In this document: piece by piece, positions 5,983 through 63,000 of the stretch
Layout of the letters: every line of letters begins with the position of its first letter
Position numbering within the stretch: position 1 is the first letter of the stretch
Assembly: GCA_023250195.1 (NCBI GenBank)
Contig: JAHFBF010000001.1
Location: 498,422 to 562,421, forward strand
DNA length: 64,000 nucleotides
Direction: 5' to 3'
Origin: Candidatus Melainabacteria bacterium
Lineage (GTDB): Bacteria; Cyanobacteriota; Vampirovibrionia; 2-02-FULL-35-15
The notes under the pieces: model-generated
Seen by the model: the letters and a program-made list of their open reading frames with translations, nothing else
Told to the model about the DNA's origin: nothing
Database searches by the model: none
Translations under genes and position numbers: made by a program

Positions 5983-6089
5983 GAGAACGTGAGTTCTGAC
6001 AAAATCCGATTTATAAGTCACGTAATAAGACTCAATGTGTAATTACTCAGCTACTGTAATGATTTATCAATATAAAGTTAGCAAGGAAA

Positions 6090-6204
6090 GATTTTGCCGA
6101 GTAAATCGACAAAATCTGTATAATGCTACAAATGGCATACCAGAAGCACTATGCAAAGCCCGACAAGCGAAGAATGAGCAAGGAGGGCGGTAAGTATTAC
6201 CTCA
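6090..6204 (+). promoter_or_regulatory. Conserved hairpin + TATAAT + ~75-nt leader module upstream of the M16 peptidase (copy A; copy B precedes valS)
   Basis: Hairpin GATTTTGCCGA-GTAAA-TCGACAAAATC (6090-6116) and TATAAT (6119-6124). The leader TACAAATGGCATACC...GCAAAGCCCGACAAGCGAAGAATGAGCAAGGAGGGCGGTAAG is near-identical to the reverse complement of 62742-62820. Confidence 0.5.
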
Positions 6205-8237: not shown

Positions 8238-8360
8238 ATAGATAAATAATACAAGGAATGTCCTCTATGCGCTAACTAAAGACTGGTCAACCAGAGAATG
8301 ACATTATCCAATTTCTGACATACTTGTTATATAATTAATTAAAAAAAGAGGTGATTGACA

Positions 8361-8582
8361 ATGTCAGATGCAGTAAAGAAAACCATTAAATTATACAAAG
8401 ACAGCAAAAAAAAGCTTGGTGATTTTACAAAGTGGTCAGATAAGCAGGTAGTATCCATTAGAGATAAAATGAGAAAAATAGCTAAAAAAAATCGTGGGAA
8501 ATGGACGCTTGAGTTTTATGAATCACTGCAGTTAATTAATAAAGAGAGTTTAAAGAGAAAACTAACTCAGAAAACAGCTTAG
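8361..8582 (+). CDS. Small basic hypothetical protein
   Basis: ATG at 8361 preceded by AGAGGTG. Lys-rich 73-aa ORF with no recognised motif. Confidence 0.4.
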   Translation: MSDAVKKTIKLYKDSKKKLGDFTKWSDKQVVSIRDKMRKIAKKNRGKWTLEFYESLQLINKESLKRKLTQKTA

Positions 8583-8632
8583 ATGTGCAGAGCGGTTATT
8601 AGGAAAAGGGAATAAATCGTTTTAATATTTAA

Positions 8633-8720
8633 AGGATTTGTCCGGTTCATCCGGCAAATCCGATCCAACGAAAGGGATTGACCGAAGGAAAGTTCAGCTT
8701 GTCTGAACTTATATAAAAAA
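8633..8720 (+). promoter_or_regulatory. Two-hairpin 5' element, copy 1, ending exactly at the ATG of the 8721 ORF
   Basis: GGATTTG-T-CCGG/TTCAT/CCGG-CAAATCC hairpin, then GTTCAG/CTTGT/CTGAAC hairpin, then TTATATAAAAAAATG. Confidence 0.65.
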
Positions 8721-8927
8721 ATGACATCAAGACGAAAATTTATGGGTTCAGATATCGATCTGGTTTTAAAGGGCGAGTTGGAAATAGATAAGTTCTGTGC
8801 CACAAGAAACGTCAGTCCACGAACTGCTTATATCTGGTGCTTAGAACGTGCCACCACCGAAGAACAACGTGAAAAAGTCAAACGTTGGATGAAGGAATAT
8901 TTTGATAAGGGTGTTGGGTTAATCTAG
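8721..8927 (+). CDS. Small hypothetical protein with a possible helix-turn-helix
   Basis: 68-aa ORF beginning right after element copy 1. The segment FCATRNVSPRTAYIWCLERA looks like a short HTH. Weak assignment. Confidence 0.45.
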   Translation: MTSRRKFMGSDIDLVLKGELEIDKFCATRNVSPRTAYIWCLERATTEEQREKVKRWMKEYFDKGVGLI

Positions 8928-8988
8928 TACAACTTAAGGAAGCTATTCAAACACAGATCTACAGACCTTAGAACGTATTTTCAAATAT

Positions 8989-9075
8989 AGGATTTGTCCA
9001 ATTTACTTGGCAAATCCGATCAATCACAGATACTGACCAATGGAAGCCTCAGCTTGTCTGAGGCATTATAAAAAA
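8989..9075 (+). promoter_or_regulatory. Two-hairpin 5' element, copy 2
   Basis: GGATTTG-T-CCAA/TTTAC/TTGG-CAAATCC and GCCTCAG/CTTGT/CTGAGGC. Both stems keep pairing through compensatory changes relative to copy 1. Ends ATTATAAAAAAATG. Confidence 0.65.
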
Positions 9076-9114
9076 ATGAAGGAATATTTTGATAAGGGTG
9101 TTGGGTTAATGTAG
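9076..9114 (+). pseudogene. 12-codon remnant duplicating the 3' end of the 8721-8927 ORF
   Basis: ATGAAGGAATATTTTGATAAGGGTGTTGGGTTAATGTAG is nearly identical to 8889-8927 (MKEYFDKGVGLI*). Confidence 0.55.
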
Positions 9115-9138
9115 TAGTGTATTGCAATACACCACTAC
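9111..9138. terminator. Perfect-arm hairpin between convergent genes (possible bidirectional terminator)
   Basis: GTAGTAGTGTATTG/CAATACACCACTAC, a 14-bp stem with one mismatch, between the + strand remnant and the stop of the minus-strand 9135 gene. No clear U-tract. Confidence 0.35.
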
Positions 9139-9572
9139 TGATAAGAACCAATGTTACTTATTTGCCAGGTTTTTTCACAGACTACAGGACCATTTGGACA
9201 ATCACACCCTTGTGGTTCATCACTACTTTCAAAGCATCTTGCTATTCTTCCATTAGCACAATGAGGCTTGCCATCCTGACATTGTGCTAATGCCAGACAA
9301 TTAAGTTCAACATTATGGACTTCAAGAAACTTATTGTCTTTCCCAACACACTTAGGCTCTTCTCCATCACATGAAGGAATATATTGTTCAGAATCATTTA
9401 TATCTGATAAACAAACTGCCTTTTCTTCATCATTTTCACAGGTTACTTCATTGTGTTCATCACAATGAGGCGGCATTGAATATTCAAGTCCCTGCATATA
9501 AGCAAAAGACGGATTGGAAGATAATAAAAATCCAATAAATAAAGCCAAAGATAGACTGATAAACCTGCCCAT
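9135..9572 (-). CDS. Secreted cysteine-rich acidic protein, function unknown
   Basis: Signal peptide MGRFISLSLALFIGFLLSSNPSFA. About 16 Cys in roughly 120 mature residues. Confidence 0.6.
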   Translation of the reverse strand: MGRFISLSLALFIGFLLSSNPSFAYMQGLEYSMPPHCDEHNEVTCENDEEKAVCLSDINDSEQYIPSCDGEEPKCVGKDNKFLEVHNVELNCLALAQCQDGKPHCANGRIARCFESSDEPQGCDCPNGPVVCEKTWQISNIGSYQ

Positions 9573-9624
9573 AGTGTTATCAATTCCTCTAACAAAAAAA
9601 GAAATCTTACGAATTCACAAGTAT

Positions 9625-9710
9625 AGACTTTGTCCGATTTCCTCAGCAAAGCCAATCAATCATAAGATCTCTATAAAAAAGTCCAAGCTTGTCCTGGACT
9701 ATATAAAAAA
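9625..9710 (+). repeat. Two-hairpin element, copy 3 (divergent, not followed by an ORF)
   Basis: GACTTTG...CAAAGCC (the A->C change is paired with T->G) and GTCCA-AG/CTTGT/C-C-TGGAC, then TATATAAAAAAGG. The middle section differs from copies 1, 2 and 4. Confidence 0.5.
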
Positions 9711-9753
9711 GGTATCGAACTTTTATACTAAACCTTTAAAAAAGTCTTAATGG

Positions 9754-10479
9754 CTAACCCGTTATTTCAGTTTGTTTTTTAATAATTTCCAGGATTCCAT
9801 TATAAGCAAGCTCAACCATTTGATTAACGACACTTTGGCTAAAGGGCTTCCCTTCAGCAGTCATCTGAAGCTCAATAATCTGTCCTGATTTATTCATAAC
9901 TACATTACAGTCAACCTCTGCTTTTGAATCTTCATTATATGAAAGATCAAGTAAAAGCTCACCATTTACAATACCAACACTAACTGCACTAACCGGTTCT
10001 ATAAGAGGGATTTTTGTAATGAGTTTTTTCTCTTTCAATTTAGAAAGTGCTTTATAAACAGCTACAAATCCTCCACATATACTTGCAACTCTTGTAGAAG
10101 CATCTGCATTTATTACATCTGCATCAATAGAAATTGTTCTTGGTCCAAGTTCGTTTAAATTAAATGCAGCCCTCAGACTTCTTCCAATAAGTCTTTGAAT
10201 CTCACTTGTTCTTCCTGAAGGTTTCCCTTTTGTAACTTCTCTCTGGTTGCGTGGTCTTGTAGAACCCGGTAATAATGAGTATTCTGCAGTAAGCCAGCCT
10301 TTGCCTGTCCCTTCCAGAAAATGAGGCACCTTTTCCTCAATCATTGCAGTAACCAGAACTTTTGTCTGACCAAGTTCAACTAAAACTGACCCATCTGCAT
10401 TTGGTGTAAAATCCGGCTTAAAAATCAGCGGTCTCAGTTCATTATTTTTTCTATTATCTGTCCTTGACATATCAAACAT
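9754..10479 (-). CDS. rph: Ribonuclease PH
   Basis: RTDNRKNNELRP...ADGSVLVELGQTKVL...GRTSEIQRLIGRSLR...DCNVVM are typical RNase PH motifs. 241 aa. Confidence 0.95.
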   Translation of the reverse strand: MFDMSRTDNRKNNELRPLIFKPDFTPNADGSVLVELGQTKVLVTAMIEEKVPHFLEGTGKGWLTAEYSLLPGSTRPRNQREVTKGKPSGRTSEIQRLIGRSLRAAFNLNELGPRTISIDADVINADASTRVASICGGFVAVYKALSKLKEKKLITKIPLIEPVSAVSVGIVNGELLLDLSYNEDSKAEVDCNVVMNKSGQIIELQMTAEGKPFSQSVVNQMVELAYNGILEIIKKQTEITG

Positions 10480-10500: not shown

Positions 10501-10595
10501 GTCATTGCGAGCATCATAGGTGCGAAGCAGCCTCAAACTGTTTGCGTAAATTCGATCGAGATTGCCACGCCTTACTTTGTTCGGCTCGCAATGAC
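10501..10595. repeat. Palindromic MITE-like element (GTCATTGCGAG family), intergenic
   Basis: Perfect 12-bp termini GTCATTGCGAGC ... GCTCGCAATGAC, with inner GCGAAGCAGCCTC / GAGATTGCCACGC arms. Confidence 0.8.
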
Positions 10596-11026
10596 AATAC
10601 CTGACAAAAATATTCTAACCGTCAGAAATTTATTGTTCTACGATCAAATCGAGGTTCAGTCCTAAAAAATTATTAGGAAGCTTAACTGTTTGATAACTAT
10701 AGAGTTCTATATTATGGGTATAAGACTCGTAGGGGAGGCCCGGAGTTACCGACATCAGATTCAAAAAGGATAATCGGGAATTACAAAGAGGTAAAAGCCA
10801 TGATTTATAATCCAATATTCGAAGAAGAAAAAGAAAAGAAGCTTCAATTTAAGCAGCTTAAAAAAGAAATTAAAAAACGTGCTCATAAAGAAAGTATGAA
10901 ACAGACAATAGATCGCGTATATAACCTGCTTCAAAAGAAGCCAATACTAACCATTGCAGCATTATTTCATCCTATAACTAACTGGTTTAAATTCTCCAAC
11001 GAGAAAGAGCATATAGTAGAAAAGAC

Positions 11027-14000
11027 CTAGGCTGCCATACTACCATTCAGCACAGCATCATCATGCGACCATGAGTCACCATCTGTTTCTTTAGCAAAAG
11101 TAACACCACTGTTTAAAGTTAATTGACTATTTGCATTTGGATCTGAATAGAGTTGCTGGTTTTTCCTTAAAATACTTCTTCCTAAAATATTCGTATTTGG
11201 AACTTCTTCTTCAGAAGCACCATAAAAATATTGCCCGGTAAATATATCGAACGTTGATGCAACATATTTATTCTCTAATCCAAATAGTGGAATGACTGCA
11301 TAACCTACACCGGCTAAAAGCTGATTTAATCCTGCTTTTAAAGGATTGTACATTCTATCTTTTCCGTCAATTCCTCTGAATATTCTTGGTAAGCCATCAG
11401 GGTTATTCATAACTTCTTTTGCATTAGCAATAATTCCAACTGCTGGAATTATATTTGCAAGAGCAATTGCCCAGCTGCCAACTTTATTAAATCCACCCTC
11501 AGCAACCTCACCAAACTTCTCTACCCTGCCAAATAACCCTGCAGTAATTGCACTGATACCACTCAATGCACCAACTAATGTCATTAAGTGTCCGGGACTT
11601 GGAACGTTTGATGAATACTGACCTGATTTTTCAGACATACGTTTGTCAACGCTAAAAACTAATCTTGGATCTTTGCAGATATCTTTAATCATAAGGATAG
11701 GAGCACTAACAGCACTTACAAGATTTCCAGCTATTTCTCCTAAAAGTGGGCTAAGCTTGCTTTCCTTCATATCTTCTTTTACATCTGAAATAAGTTTTGT
11801 ACTAAGTTTGGTAGCACTTCTAACAAATGGTCTTGGATCGACAAATTCATCTTGTTTTGCCGTACCTTCAAGCTCTTTCTTTGTATGGCTGTTTACCTTT
11901 TGCTGCATTAGAGCTCTTTGTTGTCCTCTACCAAGGAACAATACAAAGTTTCCAAAGCCTAAACCCATATGCTTAACGCCATTTGGAAGAAATGAAGAAA
12001 CAATATTTATAATTTCACCAAAAGTAATGTTATATGCCTTATGTACATTTAGTACACCTCTTAATGCACCACCACATGCTGAAACAGCTCTTACACCATT
12101 TGATAACCAGTACCCAACGTTATATAACTTCTCCCCACCAGCAGAACTCAGTAACCTGATACCGCCGCCAAGAGCCATAATTCCACCGGAGTATTTTAGT
12201 AATCCATTAAACAAAACTGGAAGATTTTTAATAAAGGATTTTCCAAAAAGACTTTTTACTTTTGTTGGCTGGAGAAATAATTTGTGTTCAGTCTGATAAT
12301 CTTTAAGTTTTTCCAGGTTTGCATATCTTATTTCTTCATTTTTAGAGTTTAAGTAAACATATTCTCCATGATTGCTGAGATATACTTCTACTTTCTTTAA
12401 ATTTTTCAGGTCTTCTTCAGTGCATGTAAATACTTTTGGTTTTGAGCCATCAAGCCTGTCAATAACAAACTGCCCATTTGCTGACTTACTTCTATAAACA
12501 GCAAAATTTCCCTTTGCATCTTTACCCCGCCATTCTCTAAATGTTTCAAACTTTGGAGCTTCCTGAGGAAGGAGTAATCCTTCTTTTTCAGCTATTATTG
12601 CCCATTCATATTTTTTAACCAGTACAGTCTGTTCATTTGAGAGTTGCTGTCCACTACATTGAAGCTGATTTAGTCTTTTTGCTTCAGCAAATTTTGTCCA
12701 GTCAAACTCAATATTTTCTCCCGCAAGCAGACCAAAAATCTCTGCTCTTCTTCTAACATAGGCTTCAGGACAAATATTTCTAATTATTTTGTCCTGATAT
12801 TGTAATCTTATCTCTTCTAATAGCTGATTCTGATTAAATTTTTCTTTCTGACCATTACTGTCAAGCTTATAAATTTTGTCACCTGTAGCATCATCAAACC
12901 CTATAACTTTATAGAAGCCTTTACTTTCTGCATCTACACTTTCTAATCCACAGATTCCAAAAGCTTTAACAGATTTATTAAAGATATCCTTATAATGTAC
13001 AAACTCTTTAAGATCATTTGACAGATATCCTCTTCTTTGTTTAATAATTTCCTTATAAATATCTACATCCTGATCCAGGTTGAAAACTATACTTGCCGAA
13101 CCACCTCTCTCAAGAGAGGCAGCCATCATACATACATCAGATTTACTGTCACCAGCCACATGCAAAAATGAATTATCTCCTAGAACCACATCAAAATCAG
13201 GCACACCTAAATGCTTTTCTCTTGCAGGCTGTACTTCTATATAATATTGTCCTTCAGGATCTAGTTTGCTTTTCTTAATAACCAAATTTAAAATTGAACC
13301 GTAAAAGTATGAATTATCATATGCAATATTATTATTTATACTGAAAATTTCATTTGGGTAAAAACAGCTATAATTATTCTCCAGCCAGATTTTAAGCTCA
13401 TTTTCAACCTGTATAAGGACTCCTTCTTTCTGACTCCTATCCTCTATTTTTCCTCCAAATTTTTGTTTAAGCTCTTTACTTATTGCATCAAGATCATAGA
13501 GTGGACATTTATTTTCATCTGGCAAAAAACTTTCAACAATATCAGGCAGAGTTCTTATAGAACTTTTTAAAGATCTAAATTCTTCTTTCAAAAAATTTCT
13601 ATAACCATCAATGCCTTTACTAAATTCGGTTGTTGATTTATTTATAAATTCCTCTGAGAACTTCAGGTTTCTGCTATCGGAACAATCAAACAAATTCCCA
13701 CCTGACTCCATCTTCATGTTTTTTAGCTGTTCCCGGGAGAAACGCTGCGCTATATACTTGCACATACGCCATTCTAAATAGCCTTTTGTCCCTTCTGTTA
13801 CAAATTTTTCTATTCCTTCATTTTTAAAGTTTGTAATATCCATATGCAAACCATTTCCATTAAATGATTTCATATTAAGCTGAGCAACTTTCTGCCTTAC
13901 ATCAGGTCTACTTGCAAGCTGCTCAAATATATTAGAAATTTTTCCTACTGCATCCTTCACAGGTGTTCCATGATTATCGTAAAAGTGAACAGTAGGAGCA

Positions 14001-15517
14001 ATTAAAACTCCCTGTGTAATTTTATTGAAAAATTCCTGCGGCTTTTGAGAAAGTAATTCGTAGTCATCAACAACCTGCTGGTTTAATTTTCCCTTTTCTT
14101 CTTCAGATAAATTTCCATCATTTCTAATTCTTTCTTTAATCTCATCAACACTGGTATCACATCCTATTAACCTTACACATTCATATGCTTTTTCTCTTGC
14201 TTGTAAAAGCTCTTCTGAAGATGCATTTACAGCCTTTAATCTATCAACTTCTCTCCAGAGTTCCTTCCCGTCATCAATACCACAAATCCTCTTCCCATCT
14301 ACTGTTTCCCCTTCTTTTAATGCCTTACTAAAATTCTTCCAGGCTTGCTCTTCACTAACACCTGTCGCTCTATTATCCACATGCCTCTTTTTAAAATCAA
14401 CTATTTGTAAGTAGTTAGGAAGATATGTTTCTCCTAAAATTTTATGCGTGTCTAAAAGGTACTTAGGAACACTCTTCGCCTCAAATACAGAAAATCCTTC
14501 TTTATTTACCAGATGAATATATTCCTGCAGAAATGTTCTCTCTTGACCTTCTTTCTTCCCTTCCGGACCTTCCAGAAATTCAAACAACTCAGCTTCTCTA
14601 AGTAATTTTGATGAAAAGAAAGTAGGTTCATATGGTTTGTGAATTACACTGCTGTTTAAAGCAATTACTGTAGCTGTTTTCGCCCCTGATAACTGATCTT
14701 CTATTGACAGACCAAAACGTTCCTGAAGTGGTCCATGTAAAATACCGGTAGTCACATACCGATCTAATCCTTCTGGAACTAACTGGATAAGTGTAGGAAA
14801 TGGTCCTCGTGCAGTATTAATCCACTCAGATACCCCAAGTTTTCCTCCAAGGGATGAAATCTGCCTACCCCATGACATTCCTTCCATACTCTGAACAAGC
14901 CATGTATCAGATGGATCCCAGTTTTTATTAACCCATGTATTATCCAGGTCATCGATACTTATTGCTTTACCGGATCCTGTTTCTATACTTTTTAGAACAT
15001 AGTTTGACCACCAGTTAACAGCACAATTATGATAATAAAGCTGTTCAAGAGTATTACCAGAAAGAGATGCAAGCATTCCTGACATTTGAACACCAGTATT
15101 TTCATTTAGTCCTTCCCAGGGGTTTTTACCCTGAGCAATGTTACTTCTGGCAAGCTTCATTACCTCGTTTGATTTCTCATATAGGTATAAAGCTCTGGCT
15201 TTTTTTAAATCTTCGTCTCCTGAAATATTTTGTGTTTGTACTTTTAAATCGTTGTATAAATTTACGTATGGAGTATTATCTATTGCCGATGTACCAAATA
15301 AAACTCCAAAAAATGAAACAGCAGAATCAAATAAATTTCTTACAGTGTCTGAAAATCCCTTTGTTGGCTTAGGACTTGACTGTGAGCTGGTATTGGCTTG
15401 AGAAGAAGCTTGAGCAGCTGAAGGCACATATCTACCCTGCAAATCTTCTACCCTTTCTTGAGAAATAGGAATTTGACGAATTCGTTGAGGCCCTACTGGT
15501 AATGGATTTACTGCCAA
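11027..15517 (-). CDS. Giant orphan protein (1496 aa) with a low-complexity N-terminus and a glycine-rich hydrophobic C-terminal region
   Basis: Uninterrupted 4.5-kb ORF with no signal peptide. N-terminal AAQASSQANTSSQSSPKPTK. The C-terminal ~400 aa hold repeated Gly/Ala/Ser-rich hydrophobic helices (GGIMALGGGIRLL, LMTLVGALSGISAITAGLFG, VGSWAIALANIIPAVGIIANA, LLAGVGYAVIPLFGL). I recognise no catalytic family. Confidence 0.85.
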   Translation of the reverse strand: MAVNPLPVGPQRIRQIPISQERVEDLQGRYVPSAAQASSQANTSSQSSPKPTKGFSDTVRNLFDSAVSFFGVLFGTSAIDNTPYVNLYNDLKVQTQNISGDEDLKKARALYLYEKSNEVMKLARSNIAQGKNPWEGLNENTGVQMSGMLASLSGNTLEQLYYHNCAVNWWSNYVLKSIETGSGKAISIDDLDNTWVNKNWDPSDTWLVQSMEGMSWGRQISSLGGKLGVSEWINTARGPFPTLIQLVPEGLDRYVTTGILHGPLQERFGLSIEDQLSGAKTATVIALNSSVIHKPYEPTFFSSKLLREAELFEFLEGPEGKKEGQERTFLQEYIHLVNKEGFSVFEAKSVPKYLLDTHKILGETYLPNYLQIVDFKKRHVDNRATGVSEEQAWKNFSKALKEGETVDGKRICGIDDGKELWREVDRLKAVNASSEELLQAREKAYECVRLIGCDTSVDEIKERIRNDGNLSEEEKGKLNQQVVDDYELLSQKPQEFFNKITQGVLIAPTVHFYDNHGTPVKDAVGKISNIFEQLASRPDVRQKVAQLNMKSFNGNGLHMDITNFKNEGIEKFVTEGTKGYLEWRMCKYIAQRFSREQLKNMKMESGGNLFDCSDSRNLKFSEEFINKSTTEFSKGIDGYRNFLKEEFRSLKSSIRTLPDIVESFLPDENKCPLYDLDAISKELKQKFGGKIEDRSQKEGVLIQVENELKIWLENNYSCFYPNEIFSINNNIAYDNSYFYGSILNLVIKKSKLDPEGQYYIEVQPAREKHLGVPDFDVVLGDNSFLHVAGDSKSDVCMMAASLERGGSASIVFNLDQDVDIYKEIIKQRRGYLSNDLKEFVHYKDIFNKSVKAFGICGLESVDAESKGFYKVIGFDDATGDKIYKLDSNGQKEKFNQNQLLEEIRLQYQDKIIRNICPEAYVRRRAEIFGLLAGENIEFDWTKFAEAKRLNQLQCSGQQLSNEQTVLVKKYEWAIIAEKEGLLLPQEAPKFETFREWRGKDAKGNFAVYRSKSANGQFVIDRLDGSKPKVFTCTEEDLKNLKKVEVYLSNHGEYVYLNSKNEEIRYANLEKLKDYQTEHKLFLQPTKVKSLFGKSFIKNLPVLFNGLLKYSGGIMALGGGIRLLSSAGGEKLYNVGYWLSNGVRAVSACGGALRGVLNVHKAYNITFGEIINIVSSFLPNGVKHMGLGFGNFVLFLGRGQQRALMQQKVNSHTKKELEGTAKQDEFVDPRPFVRSATKLSTKLISDVKEDMKESKLSPLLGEIAGNLVSAVSAPILMIKDICKDPRLVFSVDKRMSEKSGQYSSNVPSPGHLMTLVGALSGISAITAGLFGRVEKFGEVAEGGFNKVGSWAIALANIIPAVGIIANAKEVMNNPDGLPRIFRGIDGKDRMYNPLKAGLNQLLAGVGYAVIPLFGLENKYVASTFDIFTGQYFYGASEEEVPNTNILGRSILRKNQQLYSDPNANSQLTLNSGVTFAKETDGDSWSHDDAVLNGSMAA

Positions 15518-44246: not shown

Positions 44247-45373
44247 TTTTTTACCAGGTTAGTGGCTTTTCTAAGCACATTTTGTTTTTTCATTACTTCT
44301 TCAATTTCCTGATATCTGTCTTTTAAATCAGGTTGTTCATAAACCCATTTTATATAATCTCGGAATATATCTTCTAACGAGTGTTCATTTTTCCAACTAA
44401 GTTTTTTAAGTTTCTCACTTATAGAAACTGTATGCCTGGTATCACCATATCGATAGTAACCCGGAATTAGCGGCTCAATCTTTTTGTTTAAAACACTAAT
44501 TAAAATTTTCGTGTATTCTAAAAGATCTGTCCCTTTTTCACCACCTACATTAAAAGCTTCATAGTCAGCTTGAGAACTCTCAAATGCAAGAACATTCGCT
44601 CTTGCTACATCAAGGACATGAACATAATCTCTAAGTTGCTTTCCATCTTCATAAATAACCGGCGGTTTATTATTTATAAGCCTAAGAGTAAATATTCTAC
44701 AAACACCAGAATATGCATTAAAGAATGAATTTCTTGGACCCTGAACAATAGAATACCTCATCGAAACAGTTGGAATTGAATATCTTTTACCCAACTTGAC
44801 TGCTAATCTTTCCAATGCTTCTTTTGATATCCCATAAGCTGTAAAAGGATTGGTTACTGCTTCATCTATCAGAACAGACTTCATATACTCTTTACATCCA
44901 GCAACAGGACAATATATTTCCCAATCAGAACTTTCTAATTGTTTGATAATTCTACTGTCAGGATATTGAACGCCATGAGTTTTGCAATTATATTTTCCTT
45001 CACCATAAATTGACTGAGAGGAAGCTAAAACGATTTTCTTTATATCCAATTTTTTTTCAACTATAATTTCAAATATAAGTGCCGTACTAAAAGTATTCAC
45101 CCTGATAAAATTGCTAAAGTCAGTCATATAATCCTGGTAAGCAGCTAAATGAAATATTCCTTCAACACCTTCCATTGCTTTTTCTAAAACTGCCTTATCA
45201 GATACATCTCCCTGGATAAACTCTACTTCAGAAGATAAATATTTAGGTTTTCCATAAGGGTGGACTCTTGGTTGGAGCAAATCCAAGACTTTAACTTTGT
45301 ATCCTTTTTTAAGCAAAAGATCTACAGTATGAGATCCTATAAACCCTGCGCCACCTGTAACTAATACTTTCAT
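44243..45373 (-). CDS. NAD-dependent nucleotide-sugar epimerase/dehydratase (extended SDR)
   Basis: VLVTGGAGFIGSH and YGISK. ATG at 45373 (MKVLVTGG) is preferred, because the longer TTG start at 45394 lies inside the upstream hairpin element. Confidence 0.85.
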   Translation of the reverse strand: MKVLVTGGAGFIGSHTVDLLLKKGYKVKVLDLLQPRVHPYGKPKYLSSEVEFIQGDVSDKAVLEKAMEGVEGIFHLAAYQDYMTDFSNFIRVNTFSTALIFEIIVEKKLDIKKIVLASSQSIYGEGKYNCKTHGVQYPDSRIIKQLESSDWEIYCPVAGCKEYMKSVLIDEAVTNPFTAYGISKEALERLAVKLGKRYSIPTVSMRYSIVQGPRNSFFNAYSGVCRIFTLRLINNKPPVIYEDGKQLRDYVHVLDVARANVLAFESSQADYEAFNVGGEKGTDLLEYTKILISVLNKKIEPLIPGYYRYGDTRHTVSISEKLKKLSWKNEHSLEDIFRDYIKWVYEQPDLKDRYQEIEEVMKKQNVLRKATNLVKK

Positions 45374-45460
45374 CTTTTTTATAGGTTCAGACAAGCTGAA
45401 CCTTCCTTCTGTTATTTCCTTTCGCAGGATCGGATTTGCCGGATAAACCGGACAAATCCT
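45374..45460 (-). promoter_or_regulatory. Two-hairpin 5' element, copy 4, ending at the ATG of the epimerase/dehydratase gene
   Basis: The reverse complement reads AGGATTTGTCCGGTTTATCCGGCAAATCCGATCCTGCGAAAGG...GGTTCAGCTTGTCTGAACCTATAAAAAAGATG. Very close to copy 1. Confidence 0.65.
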
Positions 45461-45545
45461 ATAGTTGAGATTCGATATGTCATAGTGTTTGTTATTCTAA
45501 AGTATTATATACTGTTTTGAATAATAAGAAAAGAATCTAAGAAAT

Positions 45546-46541
45546 ATGAAAAATAATGTTTTGATTATAGGTGCTGGCAAAATAGGATCAATCAGAGCTA
45601 AAGTTGCTAAAAAGTTATCATCAAAGTCCAATTTATATATTTTTGACACTGACTTAGACAAAGCAAAAGTTCTTGCACAGGAAGTAAATGGAAAAATCGT
45701 TTACTCACTCAATGAAGGACTAAAAAATAAAAATATTCAGATAGTTATCGTTTCTGTTATTAATAAGAATACAAAAGATGTCTGCATCTCTGCTTTAAGA
45801 AACAAAAAGCATGTGCTTTGCGAAAAACCTATGGGAACTGGCTTTAAAGAAGCTCTTCAAATTTATAAAGCAGTAGAAAAATTTAAAGTGAAATTTAAAT
45901 GTGGTTTTAACCATCGTTATCACCCGGCAATACAAGAGGCTTACAAACTATGCTCACAAAAAAAAATTGGTAAAATTCTATATGTAAAAGGATCTTATGG
46001 GCATGGAGGCAGAAAAGGTTATGACAAAGAATGGCGTGCTAAAAAGTCTTTAAGTGGTGGTGGTGAATTATTAGATCAAGGCTCTCATTTATTGGATCTT
46101 TGTCATTGGTTCTTTAAATTTGAAAAAATCAAAGACGTTTATTGTATTGCAAAAACAATGTTTTGGAACATGGAGGTTGATGACAATGCGTTTGTACTTA
46201 TTGAAACGAAATCTGGTAAAGTAGCACAAATTCATGCTACCTGGACACAATGGAAAAATCTTTTTAGATTTGAAATCTATGGTACAAAAGGAGCAATAGA
46301 AATTAATGGCCTTGGGAAATCCTATGGAAGAGAAACATTAAAACTTTTTATAAGGAAAAATCCGGGACAGCCGCCACAAATTATTGAAAAGTCATTTACA
46401 GGTCGTGATAAATCATGGGAGCTTGAGTGGCTGGATTTTATAAATAATATAAACTCAAATATTACCTACAAGAGACTAATGTCAAATCATAAAGAATCTC
46501 TAGAAGTAATGAGAACAATTACCAAATTATATAGTCAATAA
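45546..46541 (+). CDS. Gfo/Idh/MocA family NAD(P)-dependent oxidoreductase
   Basis: VLIIGAGKIGS Rossmann motif, the conserved CEKP motif (VLCEKPMG), and C-terminal alpha/beta domain length. Confidence 0.85.
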   Translation: MKNNVLIIGAGKIGSIRAKVAKKLSSKSNLYIFDTDLDKAKVLAQEVNGKIVYSLNEGLKNKNIQIVIVSVINKNTKDVCISALRNKKHVLCEKPMGTGFKEALQIYKAVEKFKVKFKCGFNHRYHPAIQEAYKLCSQKKIGKILYVKGSYGHGGRKGYDKEWRAKKSLSGGGELLDQGSHLLDLCHWFFKFEKIKDVYCIAKTMFWNMEVDDNAFVLIETKSGKVAQIHATWTQWKNLFRFEIYGTKGAIEINGLGKSYGRETLKLFIRKNPGQPPQIIEKSFTGRDKSWELEWLDFINNINSNITYKRLMSNHKESLEVMRTITKLYSQ

Positions 46542-56216: not shown

Positions 56217-57917
56217 TTACTCTATCTGCTTTGCACCTAAAAGTTCGCTAACTGCATTTGTAAAATCATCGCTTGAACGTGCAGTATGAATATTAGCTTT
56301 TAGTTCAACCTTAGCCTCAGGTAATTTACTGGTTTCAACAAACAATTCGCGCTTTGTTTGCCTTGGAACCACTTTAAATCTGATTAATTTTGGATCAAGC
56401 CCAGAAGCTATGTTCACAGCTTTTAAAATCATTTCTTTTTTCTTGGCATCCTGATCTAATCTTGGTAAGAACATATCTTTTGATAACCCTACTTCAACAA
56501 TTTCTTTTGTTAATTGCAGTAAATAACTTTCAGACTGGGCAAGTAGAGTTTTTGTAGGATTGCTTTCAATAAGACCAACTATTCTTTGCCATAATATATC
56601 TAAATCTGAGTTGTCATTGCGAGGAGGCTCTGAAAGAGCCGACGAAACAATCTCCTTACTCTCGTGTAAAGATTGTGAGATTGCTTCGTCGCTCACCGCC
56701 ACGCCTTCGGCTCGCGGCTTCGGCTCCTCGCAATGACGTGCAGCCTTAGGTTGCTCTTTTATATTTTCTCCAACTCTTCCTGTCTCAAGTTTTTCAATTC
56801 TTATCTTAAGTTCAGAAACAGATACTAAAAAATCTTCATCAAGCATACTCATAATATCAGCCATAAACTGCAACTCCTGACTAAGAGCAAAACGTAATTT
56901 AGACTGTGTATCATGAAGTCTGTCTATAATTTTAAGTATATGTTCCTGACTAACTTTATCCAATATATTTAAATCACCTGACAATTCAAGTTTAAGTTTG
57001 TTTTTATAGCCAGGATCAATTTTTGCTTTTGCAAGATCAATTATCAATTCGAGCAGATCCTTGAACAATTCACTTATATCCTTCCCGCTCTTTATCAGCT
57101 CTTCCGCTAAATCAATAGATTCCTTTCTGTTAAAACTTAACACCGATTCAATTAGTTTAAATAAGCTTGTTCTATGTACAATTCCAAACAATTCAAAGAC
57201 TTCACTTGAAGAAATTGGTTTGTTTTCTACTTGTAGAACACTAATTTGATCCAGAAGAGAGACTGCATCCCGTAAACAGCCATTTGATCTTTTTGCAATA
57301 AAACTAATTACAGTTTCATCAATATTTATTTTTTCTTTATTTGTAATTTCCTTCACTCTTTTTTCAAGTTTTTCCTGGGAAATCGGCTTAAAATCTAATT
57401 TCTGGCATCTGCTTATAATAGTTGGTATTATTTTATATTCCTCTGTAGTAGCCAGAATAAATATTACATTTTTCGGTGGTTCTTCCAGAGTTTTTAAAAG
57501 AGCATTAAATGCATGATCAGTCAGCATATGGACTTCATCAATTATATAAATCTTAAAGCGCGATCCATATGTGCCAAGATTAACTCTGTTAATTAAATCT
57601 TCAGCATCTTCTACTTTTCTGTGACTTGCTGCATCTATTTCTATAACATCCAGAGAATTGCCATTAGTTATAGACTGGCAGCTCACACATTGTCCACATG
57701 GTTCCACAGTAATCCCTGATTCACAATTTAAAGACTTTGCAAGTATTCTTGCAGTAGAAGTTTTTCCGGTACCACGCGGACCACAAAAAAGATAAGCATG
57801 AACAATTTTATTATAAGCAATTGCATTTGAAAGCGTTCTAGTAACTACATCCTGACCTACAAGCTCAGAGAGTTTTTGAGGACGATATTTTAAGTATAGT
57901 GGCTGGTATTGTTTCAT
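56217..57917 (-). CDS. dnaX: DNA polymerase III subunit gamma/tau
   Basis: YRPQKLSELVGQ, Walker A GPRGTGKTS, zinc module CESGITVEPCGQCVSC, DEVHML, SRCQ. ATG at 57917 (MKQYQPLYLKYRPQ) is preferred over the GTG at 57935. Confidence 0.95.
   Translation of the reverse strand: MKQYQPLYLKYRPQKLSELVGQDVVTRTLSNAIAYNKIVHAYLFCGPRGTGKTSTARILAKSLNCESGITVEPCGQCVSCQSITNGNSLDVIEIDAASHRKVEDAEDLINRVNLGTYGSRFKIYIIDEVHMLTDHAFNALLKTLEEPPKNVIFILATTEEYKIIPTIISRCQKLDFKPISQEKLEKRVKEITNKEKINIDETVISFIAKRSNGCLRDAVSLLDQISVLQVENKPISSSEVFELFGIVHRTSLFKLIESVLSFNRKESIDLAEELIKSGKDISELFKDLLELIIDLAKAKIDPGYKNKLKLELSGDLNILDKVSQEHILKIIDRLHDTQSKLRFALSQELQFMADIMSMLDEDFLVSVSELKIRIEKLETGRVGENIKEQPKAARHCEEPKPRAEGVAVSDEAISQSLHESKEIVSSALSEPPRNDNSDLDILWQRIVGLIESNPTKTLLAQSESYLLQLTKEIVEVGLSKDMFLPRLDQDAKKKEMILKAVNIASGLDPKLIRFKVVPRQTKRELFVETSKLPEAKVELKANIHTARSSDDFTNAVSELLGAKQIE
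56613..56737. repeat. Palindromic MITE-like element (GTCATTGCGAGG family) inside the dnaX coding frame
   Basis: GTCATTGCGAGGAGGC...CGACGAAACAATCTC // GAGATTGCTTCGTCG...GGCTCCTCGCAATGAC. It is translated as RHCEEPKPRAEGVAVSDEAISQSLHESKEIVSSALSEPPRNDN. Confidence 0.8.
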
Positions 57918-57951
57918 GGTTGCCAATGTAGGCACGTAGCATGCTACGTAC

Positions 57952-58554
57952 CTACACTATTACCTCTATCCCGTTAAATTTATTCATAGCTTCCCCCACA
58001 TCTTTTGTAACTATCGTTTCAAGCGCTGATATAGAAAGCTCTGTAACTTTTTTTACCAGATTTTCTTCTTCTTTTGCAAACTTTTTTAGCACATAATCTG
58101 CTCTTATATCACCACCCGGATCAGGACCCACCCCTATTCTCAGTCTGGTAAATTCCTGCTCCCCTCCAAGCATTTGAATTATTGATTCTACACCATGATG
58201 ACCACCTGCACCACTATTAAAATTAATCCTGACTTTTCCAAGATTTAATGCAACATCATCATGTACTACAATTAAATTTTTTGGTTCAATCTTGAACCAG
58301 TTTAATAATTTTACTACTGCATCTCCAGAATGGTTCATAAAAGTTGTAGGCCATGCCAGTATAATCTCATAAGTCTTGCTTTCAATTTCAATTTTTTCTT
58401 TCCCATACCAGGAGGATTGTTTTTTTTCTTCTTTTCCTAAAATCTTATATTTCTCTCCAAAAGCATCCAGTACGGCAAATCCCACATTATGGCGAGTGTT
58501 CTCATATTCATTGCCAGGATTTCCTAAAGCTACAATTATCTTTTTGGCTGCCAT
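57952..58554 (-). CDS. pth: Peptidyl-tRNA hydrolase
   Basis: IVALGNPGNEYENTRHNVGF, HDD, GGHHG(V)ESI motifs. Confidence 0.95.
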   Translation of the reverse strand: MAAKKIIVALGNPGNEYENTRHNVGFAVLDAFGEKYKILGKEEKKQSSWYGKEKIEIESKTYEIILAWPTTFMNHSGDAVVKLLNWFKIEPKNLIVVHDDVALNLGKVRINFNSGAGGHHGVESIIQMLGGEQEFTRLRIGVGPDPGGDIRADYVLKKFAKEEENLVKKVTELSISALETIVTKDVGEAMNKFNGIEVIV

Positions 58555-59755: not shown

Positions 59756-59848
59756 GTCATTGCGAGGGCTTCAGCCCGAAGCAATCTCCCTAACTTATTC
59801 ACGTTTGTGAGATTGTTTCGTCGGGACTTTGTCCCTCCTTGCAATGAC
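59756..59848. repeat. Palindromic MITE-like element (GTCATTGCGAGG family), intergenic between valS and dxr
   Basis: GTCATTGCGAGGGCTTCAGCCCGAAGCAATCTC ... GAGATTGTTTCGTCGGGACTTTGTCCCTCCTTGCAATGAC. It ends 9 nt upstream of the dxr start codon. Confidence 0.8.
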
Positions 59849-62741: not shown

Positions 62742-62862
62742 ATCGTTTCTACCTACCGCCTTCCTTGCTCATTCTTCGCTTGTCAGGCTTTGCAATGTAC
62801 TCACGGTCTGCCACTTGTAATATTATACAAATTTTGATCTGCCTTCGGCAGATCAAAATTTT
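62742..62862 (-). promoter_or_regulatory. Conserved hairpin + TATAAT + leader module upstream of valS (copy B)
   Basis: The reverse complement reads AATTTTGATCTGCCGAAGGCAGATCAAAATT-TG-TATAAT-ATTACAAGTGGCAGACC...GCAAAGCCTGACAAGCGAAGAATGAGCAAGGAAGGCGGTAGG...ATG. It matches 6090-6204. Confidence 0.5.
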
Positions 62863-63000
62863 ACCGTATGAATAGTCTACCCGGAAATGTTATATAAGCT
62901 AAGCAGTAACAATTTAATCTTAACTACTCTTTTTATTGAGAATGGAGTACTTGCAAATACAAAAAAACTATGGTGAAATTAAATACTAAATTATATTCAA

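Follow-up and report, generated by a model that had tools for sequence, protein, structure and literature searches.

A 64-kb stretch (64,000 nt) of a Candidatus Melainabacteria genome (GenBank assembly GCA_023250195.1, contig JAHFBF010000001.1, positions 498,422 to 562,421 of the forward strand), referred to below as the window, carries four copies of an element made up of two hairpins, P1 and P3, and an A-rich tail. Melainabacteria are an uncultured, non-photosynthetic sister group of the cyanobacteria, and to our knowledge almost nothing is known about their gene expression. A first-pass annotation of the window, made from the letters alone, had listed four copies of the element, and all four (c1 to c4) were confirmed. 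They belong to a real, strongly supported, and previously uncatalogued family of structured repeats, known so far only from a groundwater group of Melainabacteria. The listed positions held, except that the GGATTTG motif begins one base later in the three copies on the + strand (8634, 8990, and 9626). The proposed unit of about 88 nt does comprise the two hairpins, but some 19 nt upstream of P1 are conserved as well, bringing the unit to about 110 nt. Across the family, the element measures 90–110 nt and runs from a flank of about 19 nt through P1, a linker of about 28–30 nt, and P3 to the A-rich tail UAUAAAAAA, which leads into the AUG.

In c1 (+ strand), a conserved 5′ flank block at 8615–8633 (family consensus AACGnWYTWRCAAWTAWA, from a conservation profile of 104 copies) precedes hairpin P1 at 8634–8661 (GGAUUUG-U-CCGG / UUCAU / CCGG-CAAAUCC; 11 bp and a bulged U). 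Next comes a purine-rich linker (8662–8689), with GAUC, UUGAC, and GGAAG motifs that are conserved in an alignment of 105 copies, and then P3 (8690–8710), which has 8 bp and a near-invariant pentaloop CUUGU at 8698–8702. The copy ends in the A-rich, single-stranded AUAUAAAAAA (8711–8723), composed of the tail (8711–8720), which is unpaired in the minimum-energy fold, and the ATG at 8721 of a 68-aa open reading frame (ORF; 8721–8927). An ATG had been reported to abut three of the four copies, and this is the case for c1, c2, and c4. Public gene calls at the locus downstream of c1 give a protein of 61 aa rather than 68 aa, however, and judging from this length, the real start may be the second ATG, at codon 8, instead of 8721.

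The second copy on the + strand, c2 (8971–9078), has the same layout, with the 5′ block at 8971–8989, P1 at 8990–9017, the linker at 9018–9045, P3 at 9046–9064, the tail at 9065–9075, and an ATG at 9076. This ATG opens only a 12-codon remnant (9076–9114), which duplicates the last 38 nt of the ORF led by c1 (8889–8927); the two members of this direct duplication bracket c2 within a 187-nt unit. The third copy, c3 (9607–9710, + strand; P1 9626–9653, P3 9680–9700, tail 9701–9710), is degenerate and is not followed by a gene on the + strand. Its P1 arms, GACTTTG/CAAAGCC, had been taken to preserve pairing; they contain one compensated pair, but also an A-C mismatch, and the inner stem is damaged. 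The small ORFs around c1 to c3 (8355–8582, 8721–8927, and 9135–9572; 75, 68, and 145 aa) showed no Pfam match, and a 1,496-aa ORF lies nearby at 11027–15517. The fourth copy, c4, is located on the − strand (45371–45478; 5′ block 45478–45460, P1 45459–45432, linker 45431–45404, P3 45403–45383, tail 45382–45374). The ATG that follows it at 45373 starts a 376-aa NAD-dependent epimerase/dehydratase (Pfam PF01370, E = 4e-42), the first in a run of same-strand ORFs extending to 36674, and its divergent neighbor is a GFO/IDH/MocA oxidoreductase at 45546.

When folded as RNA on the strands given above, c1, c2, and c4 reached −28.9, −24.3, and −30.9 kcal/mol (z −3.2, −2.2, and −4.0), and the predicted folds consisted of exactly P1 and P3, with the AUG region unpaired in both the minimum-energy and the centroid structure. 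The degenerate c3 folded poorly on the + strand (−14.4 kcal/mol, z −0.8) and well on the − strand (−27.0 kcal/mol, z −2.9). The P1 consensus of the window copies spans 28 nt (GGAUUUG-U-CCNN / UUYAY / NNGG-CAAAUCC, 11 bp, bulged U), and the window contains the core pattern TTTGTCC-N10-GCAAA 4 times where 0.6 would be expected, a count of at least 4 being reached in 0 of 100 shuffles. In addition, a P1-type hairpin stands alone in reverse orientation at 6089–6117 (− strand; 25.8 bits, E = 0.001), upstream of a different structured leader and followed by TGTATAAT at 6117–6124 on the + strand. This lone, reversed copy indicates that P1 is a separable module, the reverse reading of which can form part of a promoter.

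A scan for the strict two-hairpin pattern in one genome per species (185,579 species) returned 17 loci, all of them in metagenome-assembled genomes of Candidatus Melainabacteria or Caenarcanales from several groundwater sites, and P1 alone was found at no fewer than 120 loci in a metagenome scan. Viral contigs yielded 0 matches, and a phage origin was rejected on this ground. Building a covariance model, as the first-pass annotation had proposed, and searching with it (24 copies in the model, cut-off at least 63 bits) gave 132 matches, 113 of them distinct, in Melainabacteria/Caenarcanales genomes and metagenomes, with a clear positional bias. Within the window, c4 scored 104.1 bits, c2 97.7 bits, and c3 75.1 bits, the lowest of the four. 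The matches were studied in loci of about 8 kb (labeled L001 and so on), which together with the window make up the material analyzed here. The window holds 4 copies per 64 kb, and additional, unseeded copies turned up in the loci about once per 40–50 kb, which suggests tens to more than 100 copies per genome, an extrapolation from density and not a count. The family had been described as unlike any known riboswitch or leader, in agreement with which Rfam 15 gave no gathering-level match anywhere in the window; at E ≤ 10, 7 weak matches appeared in 8560–9760, none of which overlapped any copy of the element. Our literature search returned nothing on the element sequence, nor any paper on RNA motifs in Melainabacteria.

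Compensatory changes in the stems, first proposed from the four window copies, were confirmed on 105 distinct copies, aligned with MAFFT without fitting to the structure. P1 was paired in 99.0% of cases, with double changes at 10 of its 11 pairs, and P3 in 93.8%, with double changes at all 8; jointly, 18/19 pairs of the two stems showed such changes. The compensatory character claimed for the second hairpin extends to the whole family; P3 of c3 contains an A-C mismatch. Overall, 88.9% of cells were paired and 21 pairs had double changes. None of 500 shuffles reached the observed values on any measure, and slid controls were only 19–51% paired. The covariation is real and very strong, as had been argued, and the element is not a decaying simple repeat. 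Mutual information with average-product correction detected two helices only, P1 and P3. A third helix in the linker (registers GAUC/GAUU and GAUCAR/YUGAYC) was rejected, being 61%–64% paired with almost no double changes, and the folding energy of the linker was little better than that of shuffles (−3.45 vs −2.42 kcal/mol). Pseudoknots between the P1 loop and the tail or between the P3 loop and the linker were likewise rejected, as no mutual-information signal was seen besides P1 and P3. Among the unpaired positions, the GAUC after P1, the GGAAG, the CUUGU loop, and the A at −1 are more than 90% invariant, as is the outer P1 stem when genomes from different sites are compared, whereas the P3 stems vary freely. 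The 19 nt upstream of P1 are semi-conserved in a position-specific profile (104 copies).

Several features suggest in which orientation the element is read. Tandem G-A/A-G pairs in P3, present in about 13 copies, are compatible with the sense strand only, as the other strand would have pyrimidine-pyrimidine clashes. An excess of G-U pairs over A-C mismatches (21 vs 11) favors the sense strand as well. Among the copies between co-directional genes, the sense strand folded better in 25 and the reverse strand in 8 (25/33 decided), while the copies antisense to both neighbors showed the opposite tendency (sense better in 2, reverse better in 7; 7/9 decided).

All copies are intergenic, and the bias toward start codons seen in the window holds for the family at large. 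In 59 of the 113 distinct copies, an ORF of 60 aa or more, or one running off the contig, has its ATG between −9 and +30 nt relative to the model end, with a mode of −3 to +1, so that the ATG typically comes about 6–16 nt after P3. Of the downstream neighbors, 74 are co-directional and 27 convergent; of 97 upstream neighbors, 63 are co-directional and 34 divergent. Within co-directional gene runs, 81% of copies are co-oriented with the run, the commonest layout being a stop codon, about 30 nt, the element, and the ATG of the next gene. After copies without an adjacent ORF, ATG occurs at background frequency (32% vs 34%), suggesting that the association is with genes and ruling out that the ATG is itself part of the repeat. 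At L081, L090, and L095, P3 and the tail stand directly before an ATG without P1. No functional theme could be recognized downstream: 59 proteins matched 102 Pfam families, none of which occurred in more than 3 proteins. The element is not confined to protein-coding genes, either. Four or five copies directly precede a tRNA: sense tRNA genes begin at 0 ± 2 nt from the element's end at L059, L095, and L075, as well as at L123 and after the array at L001; orthologous tRNA-Gln genes in two genomes are both led by the element; and some copies precede other non-coding leaders (L027, L003, and L051). These contacts indicate that its role is not purely translational. The abutment on tRNA 5′ ends and non-coding leaders, the copies without an ORF, and the repeat-family dynamics described below all went beyond what the first-pass annotation had anticipated.

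Comparison of orthologous loci suggests that the structure is maintained in place. Orthologous genes whose products share 42%–82% identity keep the element, with compensatory changes in its stems, such as GGAUUUG/CAAAUCC in one genome and GGAUUCA/UGAAUCC in the other, and the P3 stems differ as well. In 5 of 6 orthologous pairs, the element was at least as conserved as the flanking coding sequence (for example, 0.97 vs about 0.70, 0.76 vs 0.70, and 0.74 vs 0.57).

Our tentatively favored reading of these data is that the element is a modular sense-strand RNA leader or intercistronic module, co-transcribed with its neighbors, that insulates and stabilizes the transcript and leaves an open, A-rich start site. 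The element would be transcribed in the sense direction within the precursor of the next mRNA cistron, tRNA, or non-coding leader, and would act post-transcriptionally as a generic module marking the start of a cistron. Its two closed hairpins may lock the leader, such that upstream sequence cannot pair with the initiation region and the cistron is set apart from the preceding one. They may also form a barrier to exonucleases or to upstream ribosomes and structure, or designate a site within the A/U-rich tail for processing. The tail itself could serve as an open landing site for ribosomes, with no need for a Shine-Dalgarno (SD) sequence. The invariance of the P1 stem, the loops, and the linker motifs suggests that a trans-acting factor, most likely a protein, would read the invariant nucleotides. 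New copies would arise by duplication or conversion within a genome, which gives the family the look of a dispersed repeat as well. In places such as c3 and 6089–6124, the reverse strand may have been co-opted as a promoter or terminator.

Of the three roles that had been offered for the element, this portable leader, for translation initiation or transcript stability, fits best. Starts led by the element were predicted to be more open than other starts on the same contigs (unpaired probability from −15 to +12, 0.60 vs 0.48; p = 7e-10), a gain that in part follows from the A-richness of the tail. SD use is low in these genomes, with an SD-like 4-mer before only 35% of the other genes (ATG starts in the loci and the window). 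Where the ATG lies 10 nt or more past the tail, the gap contains its own GGAG or AAGGA, while ATGs abutting the tail have none. Genes without the element show an enrichment of −10-like hexamers 6–12 nt upstream of the ATG, and short-leader or leaderless mRNAs probably exist and may be common in this lineage. Stable hairpins near the AUG are known to shape initiation or protect the 5′ end, as in phage T4 genes 38 and 25 and in the 5′ stabilizers of Gram-positive bacteria. With GGAAG just 5′ of P3, the hairpin could similarly set an SD-like distance to the AUG. Those hairpins are features of single genes, however. A split SD, in which P3 brings GGAAG next to the AUG, is possible, but bridging of this kind is not needed where SD use is this low, and it does not fit the copies before tRNAs.

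A number of observations weigh against the leader. Roughly 45% of copies, some of the top scorers among them, lack an adjacent ORF. Their sites are 3′-UTR-like or convergent, directly against terminators or the 3′ ends of genes for tRNA, 23S rRNA, or RNase P RNA, and a start-site role alone cannot account for them. Copies before tRNAs, in turn, have no use for a place where ribosomes could land. The G-U counts yield a weak strand asymmetry (21 G-U pairs vs 11 A-C mismatches), with numbers too small to decide when split by genomic context, and we infer the strand, the ends, and any processing of the element's transcript. In one orthologous pair, the two genes carry different subfamilies of the element, and its identity (0.58) is below that of the coding sequence (0.75). 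A subfamily of at least 11 copies, with P3 GCCCGAGCUUGUCGAGGGC and a distinct linker, precedes unrelated genes on the large Ga0209515 contigs of one genome; this GAGGGC subfamily is confined to that genome's contigs. At L001 (2652–3099), four tandem copies abut directly, without the 19-nt block, and run into a tRNA-Ser(CGA) gene. In syntenic comparisons, the element was present in a relative and not in the window at three sites (L011, L033, and L128). Subfamilies, arrays, and presence/absence differences are no less compatible with a replicating repeat or gene conversion than with a function.

Since the leader model misses the 3′-UTR-like copies and covers the tRNA copies only loosely, a selfish or duplicative repeat, non-autonomous and mobile, of the REP/REPIN, MITE (a miniature transposable element with inverted repeats), or bcr1 type, is a serious rival, unlikely though we consider it. 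On this account, the hairpins would be kept for a transposase- or recombinase-like enzyme, possibly as single-stranded DNA, and the placement would reflect tolerated sites or a preference for A/T tracts. The one-genome subfamily and the L001 array speak for it, as do a tandem pair at L100, head-to-head pairs at L045 and L099, the P1-only and P3-only modules, and flipped hairpin loops (P3 of L102 and the lone P1 at 6089). Presence/absence differences may extend to near-identical strains: on contigs with an identical RNase PH gene, the spacing between the 61-aa and 145-aa genes is 207 nt in one and 20 nt in the other (from gene tables only), so that the 187-nt unit with c2 is seemingly absent from a near-identical strain. 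The 3′ end, moreover, always meets an A-run. This run is either A-rich sequence preceding an ATG or the complement of a T-run, which, with a convergent gene next, belongs to that gene's terminator or to a stable RNA 3′ end.

Against a repeat maintained for its own sake, no terminal inverted repeats were found: the two ends differ (GGAUUUG... vs ...CUGAAGCU-AUAAAA), and P1 and P3 are internal and unrelated to each other. Target-site duplications were not detected, either. The longest word shared between flanks averaged 5.79 nt, compared with 5.71 ± 0.10 after permutation (43/200 permutations as high), in a test that is insensitive to duplications of 2–4 nt. No partner enzyme was identified in the 8-kb loci or the 64-kb window, and, short of an exhaustive search, no gene for a REP-associated tyrosine transposase (RAYT) has come to light there. 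The retention of the element by diverged orthologs, at or above the conservation of the coding sequence, the very tight abutment of start codons, and the co-orientation within gene runs also argue against it. Finally, copies that each have their own stems and share their unpaired nucleotides are what is expected from selection at each locus, and not from recent copying.

REPs are single palindromes of 20–40 nt that contain a conserved GTAG, have a RAYT transposase as their partner, and are mostly found after genes. P1 alone, an imperfect palindrome of 28 nt with a bulge that occurs in either orientation, has a REP-like look. Before P1, however, a TAWA was found instead of a conserved GTAG, and the element differs from REPs in its composite, polar architecture and its coupling to start codons. 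REP, BIME, and REPIN sequences of proteobacteria (in part PMC3184786) resemble it as high-copy, imperfect palindromes that lie outside genes and inside transcription units, preserve their hairpin, and form subfamilies and arrays within a genome. In the Bacillus cereus group, bcr1 (Okstad 2004, Klevan 2007, and Kristoffersen 2011, as summarized in PMC3184786) is the precedent for a dispersed, lineage-specific intergenic repeat of about 100–155 nt with two independent, predicted RNA stem-loops and compensatory changes, and its distribution, too, is not conserved between related strains. Unlike the element, it has 5-bp direct repeats, is treated as mobile, and is known to be transcribed, whereas transcription of the element is a prediction. 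More than half of the element copies, in turn, sit right at a start codon, and their orthologous positions have lasted through deep divergence. The Correia elements of Neisseria (CREE/NEMIS) are similarly small, gene-adjacent intergenic repeats with the capacity for an end promoter and for RNA hairpins in co-transcripts, and their presence varies between related genomes, affecting neighboring genes (PMC2649163). Their terminal inverted repeats measure 26 nt, and they have a TA duplication, an IHF site, and duplexes of RNase III length (PMC2649163), as opposed to two unrelated short hairpins (11 and 8 bp) with a fixed polarity to the downstream gene. BOX, ERIC, and SPRITE repeats are modular and intergenic as well, are transcribed with their neighbors, fold into stable RNAs, and modulate expression (in part PMC3049150); their sequences and hosts are different, and none has been reported to end at a start codon as a rule. 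Closest in kind to bcr1, CREE, and REP-type repeats, the element stands apart from them by being polar, coupled to start codons, and deeply retained among orthologs. As bcr1, Correia, and REP sequences show (PMC3184786 and PMC2649163), the leader and repeat models do not exclude each other.

A bolder reading, which we hold to be distinctly improbable, is a self-propagating start-of-cistron cassette. It would bring ribosomes to internal start codons, or place them there, and so provide SD-free initiation in the manner of an internal ribosome entry site (IRES), with P3 in place of the SD helix and a lineage-specific protein reading P1, and would be copied around the genome, perhaps via an RNA intermediate targeting A/T tracts, equipping new genes with an initiation region.

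The element might alternatively be an RNA operator through which a global post-transcriptional regulator controls the stability or translation of about a hundred transcripts, an explanation we think rather improbable. Such a regulator could be CsrA-like and bind three GGA motifs that recur in the element (AWAGGAUUUG, RGGAUUG, and AAGGAAG), which may be similar to CsrA sites, or it could read P1 and CUUGU. The invariance of the unpaired nucleotides and of the outer P1 stem next to freely varying P3 stems would suit such an operator, as would the high copy number and the functionally mixed genes. The first GGA is base-paired, however, and the second is poorly conserved, while tRNA genes and 3′-UTR copies would be odd members of a translational regulon, and a candidate for the protein was not identified. 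Comparable in being abundant, lineage-restricted, and intergenic, with a proposed post-transcriptional network, are the TAACTGA direct repeats of marine Beggiatoaceae; they are short direct heptamers without hairpins, unlike the element (PMC4679880).

We consider it highly improbable that the element is primarily a DNA-level cassette at transcription-unit boundaries, whether as a forward promoter of near-leaderless mRNAs, as had been suggested, or as a bidirectional terminator combined with a reverse promoter of the form TTGCCN-18-TATAAT. For the forward promoter, the tail's TATAnn hexamer is mostly separated from the ATG by 0–4 nt and from the tRNA +1 by 0–6 nt, spacings too short for a −10 box, as which it was rejected. 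The hexamer usually lacks T at position 6, and under a strict definition of the −10 (A2 and T6) at any spacing, only 12 hexamers were found among 57 copies. Upstream of P1, no −35 or −10 was seen at a fixed position, and a sigma-54 or Bacteroidetes-type reading of the upstream block did not fit, as judged by eye. The −10-like hexamers before element-free genes would be in keeping with near-leaderless promoters in this lineage. On the reverse strand, the 5′ block and P1 do read as a sigma-70-like TTGCCN-18-TWTAWT, in which TATAAT is the commonest hexamer, and this reading faces real genes at c3, at c4 (the gene at 45546), and at several loci. The key A2 and T6 of the reverse −10 are present in 42%–45% of copies, however, equally for divergent and other neighbors, and only 34/97 upstream neighbors are divergent. 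This independence from the orientation of the neighbor suggests that the reverse promoter is not the main function.

The reverse strand nevertheless appears to be used in places, namely at c3, at c4, and at 6089–6124 of the window, where the reversed P1 is followed by the extended −10 TGTATAAT. On the − strand of c3 (9619–9700), TTGCTG-18-TATACT faces the ORF at 9135–9572 (145 aa, cysteine-rich, signal-peptide-like), and the hairpin 9700–9680 is followed by UUUUUU, 43 nt past the stop codon of RNase PH; c3 looks like a repeat copy re-used as a terminator and promoter. On the sense strand, no intrinsic terminator was found, as P1 is followed by GAUC and P3 by UAUAAAAA, with no U-run; the definition of a terminator fits only the degenerate c3, and only on its opposite strand. 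Promoters of either direction would also leave the compensatory covariation of both stems unexplained. The protein-binding DNA operator that had been put forward is not supported for the same reason: both arms of both stems change together while staying complementary, which is not expected for the site of a dimeric DNA-binding protein. A relation to CRISPR or integron attC sites can be set aside as well, with no regular repeat-spacer arrays and no GTTRRRY/RYYYAAC cores in the consensus; the only tandem arrays seen are of whole 90-nt units (L001).

Least probable of all is a riboswitch or ligand sensor, or an antitermination leader that would be comparable to the two-hairpin put RNA of phage HK022: the 5′-leader position, the conserved unpaired nucleotides between covarying stems, and the long run headed by c4 and its epimerase/dehydratase would be consistent with it, but the downstream genes are functionally unrelated and share no pathway, the structure has neither a multi-helix junction nor a pseudoknot, many copies are located in 3′ UTRs or just ahead of convergent genes, Rfam has no match, and no expression platform was found (no alternative terminator and no sequestered ribosome-binding site, P3 being followed by an A-run), so that the riboswitch version is already largely refuted by the present analysis.

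At about one copy per 15–50 kb, and set exactly at the start of a share of the cistrons and of some tRNAs, the element would amount to a major, previously unrecorded feature of transcript architecture. Its shape is held by selection across groundwater genomes from several sites. Should the element insulate, stabilize, or open starts, it would show how translation is organized within operons in a lineage with low SD use, and would be a natural counterpart of the synthetic 5′-UTR insulators of bioengineering. Were it mainly selfish, it would clearly exemplify a structured repeat whose survival is confined to gene starts. On either view, the element lends itself well to a new Rfam family and offers a useful marker by which start-codon calls in these genomes can be corrected.

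Other elements were noted in the window and its relatives. The leader next to the lone P1 is a second conserved one, with seven examples: 6089–6204 (+), about 62742–62880 (−), L008, L014, L027, L044, and L060. It consists of a hairpin, the extended −10 TGTATAAT (6117–6124), and GCACUnUGCAAAGCC-N4-AAGCGAAGAAUGAGCRAGG-N-GGCGGU, with a covarying GCCNN/NNGGC stem; among the genes downstream of it are an M16 peptidase and a class I aminoacyl-tRNA synthetase, probably ValRS. Rfam gave no match among the seven examples, the one in L014 included, and the leader is a candidate new cis-regulatory RNA. A MITE-like, G+C-rich element of about 95–125 nt with 12-nt inverted termini GTCATTGCGAGS occurs at 10501–10595, 56613–56737, and 59756–59848, with a single end at 139–150; its terminus motif has nine matches against 1.55 expected. 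One copy fills the RNase PH spacer, where the relative L011 has the two-hairpin element instead. Similarly, a near-perfect palindrome starting with GTAG (57927–57956; TGTAGGCACGTAGCATGCTACGTACCTACA) fills the spacer before a dnaX-like gene, and the corresponding spacer in the relative L128 (about 82% identical) contains a small extra gene and the two-hairpin element. Finally, some 140 nt of non-coding sequence ahead of a 76-aa ORF (10660–10800 in the window, 760–900 in L011) are about 75% identical between the two and may be an RNA motif or otherwise regulatory.

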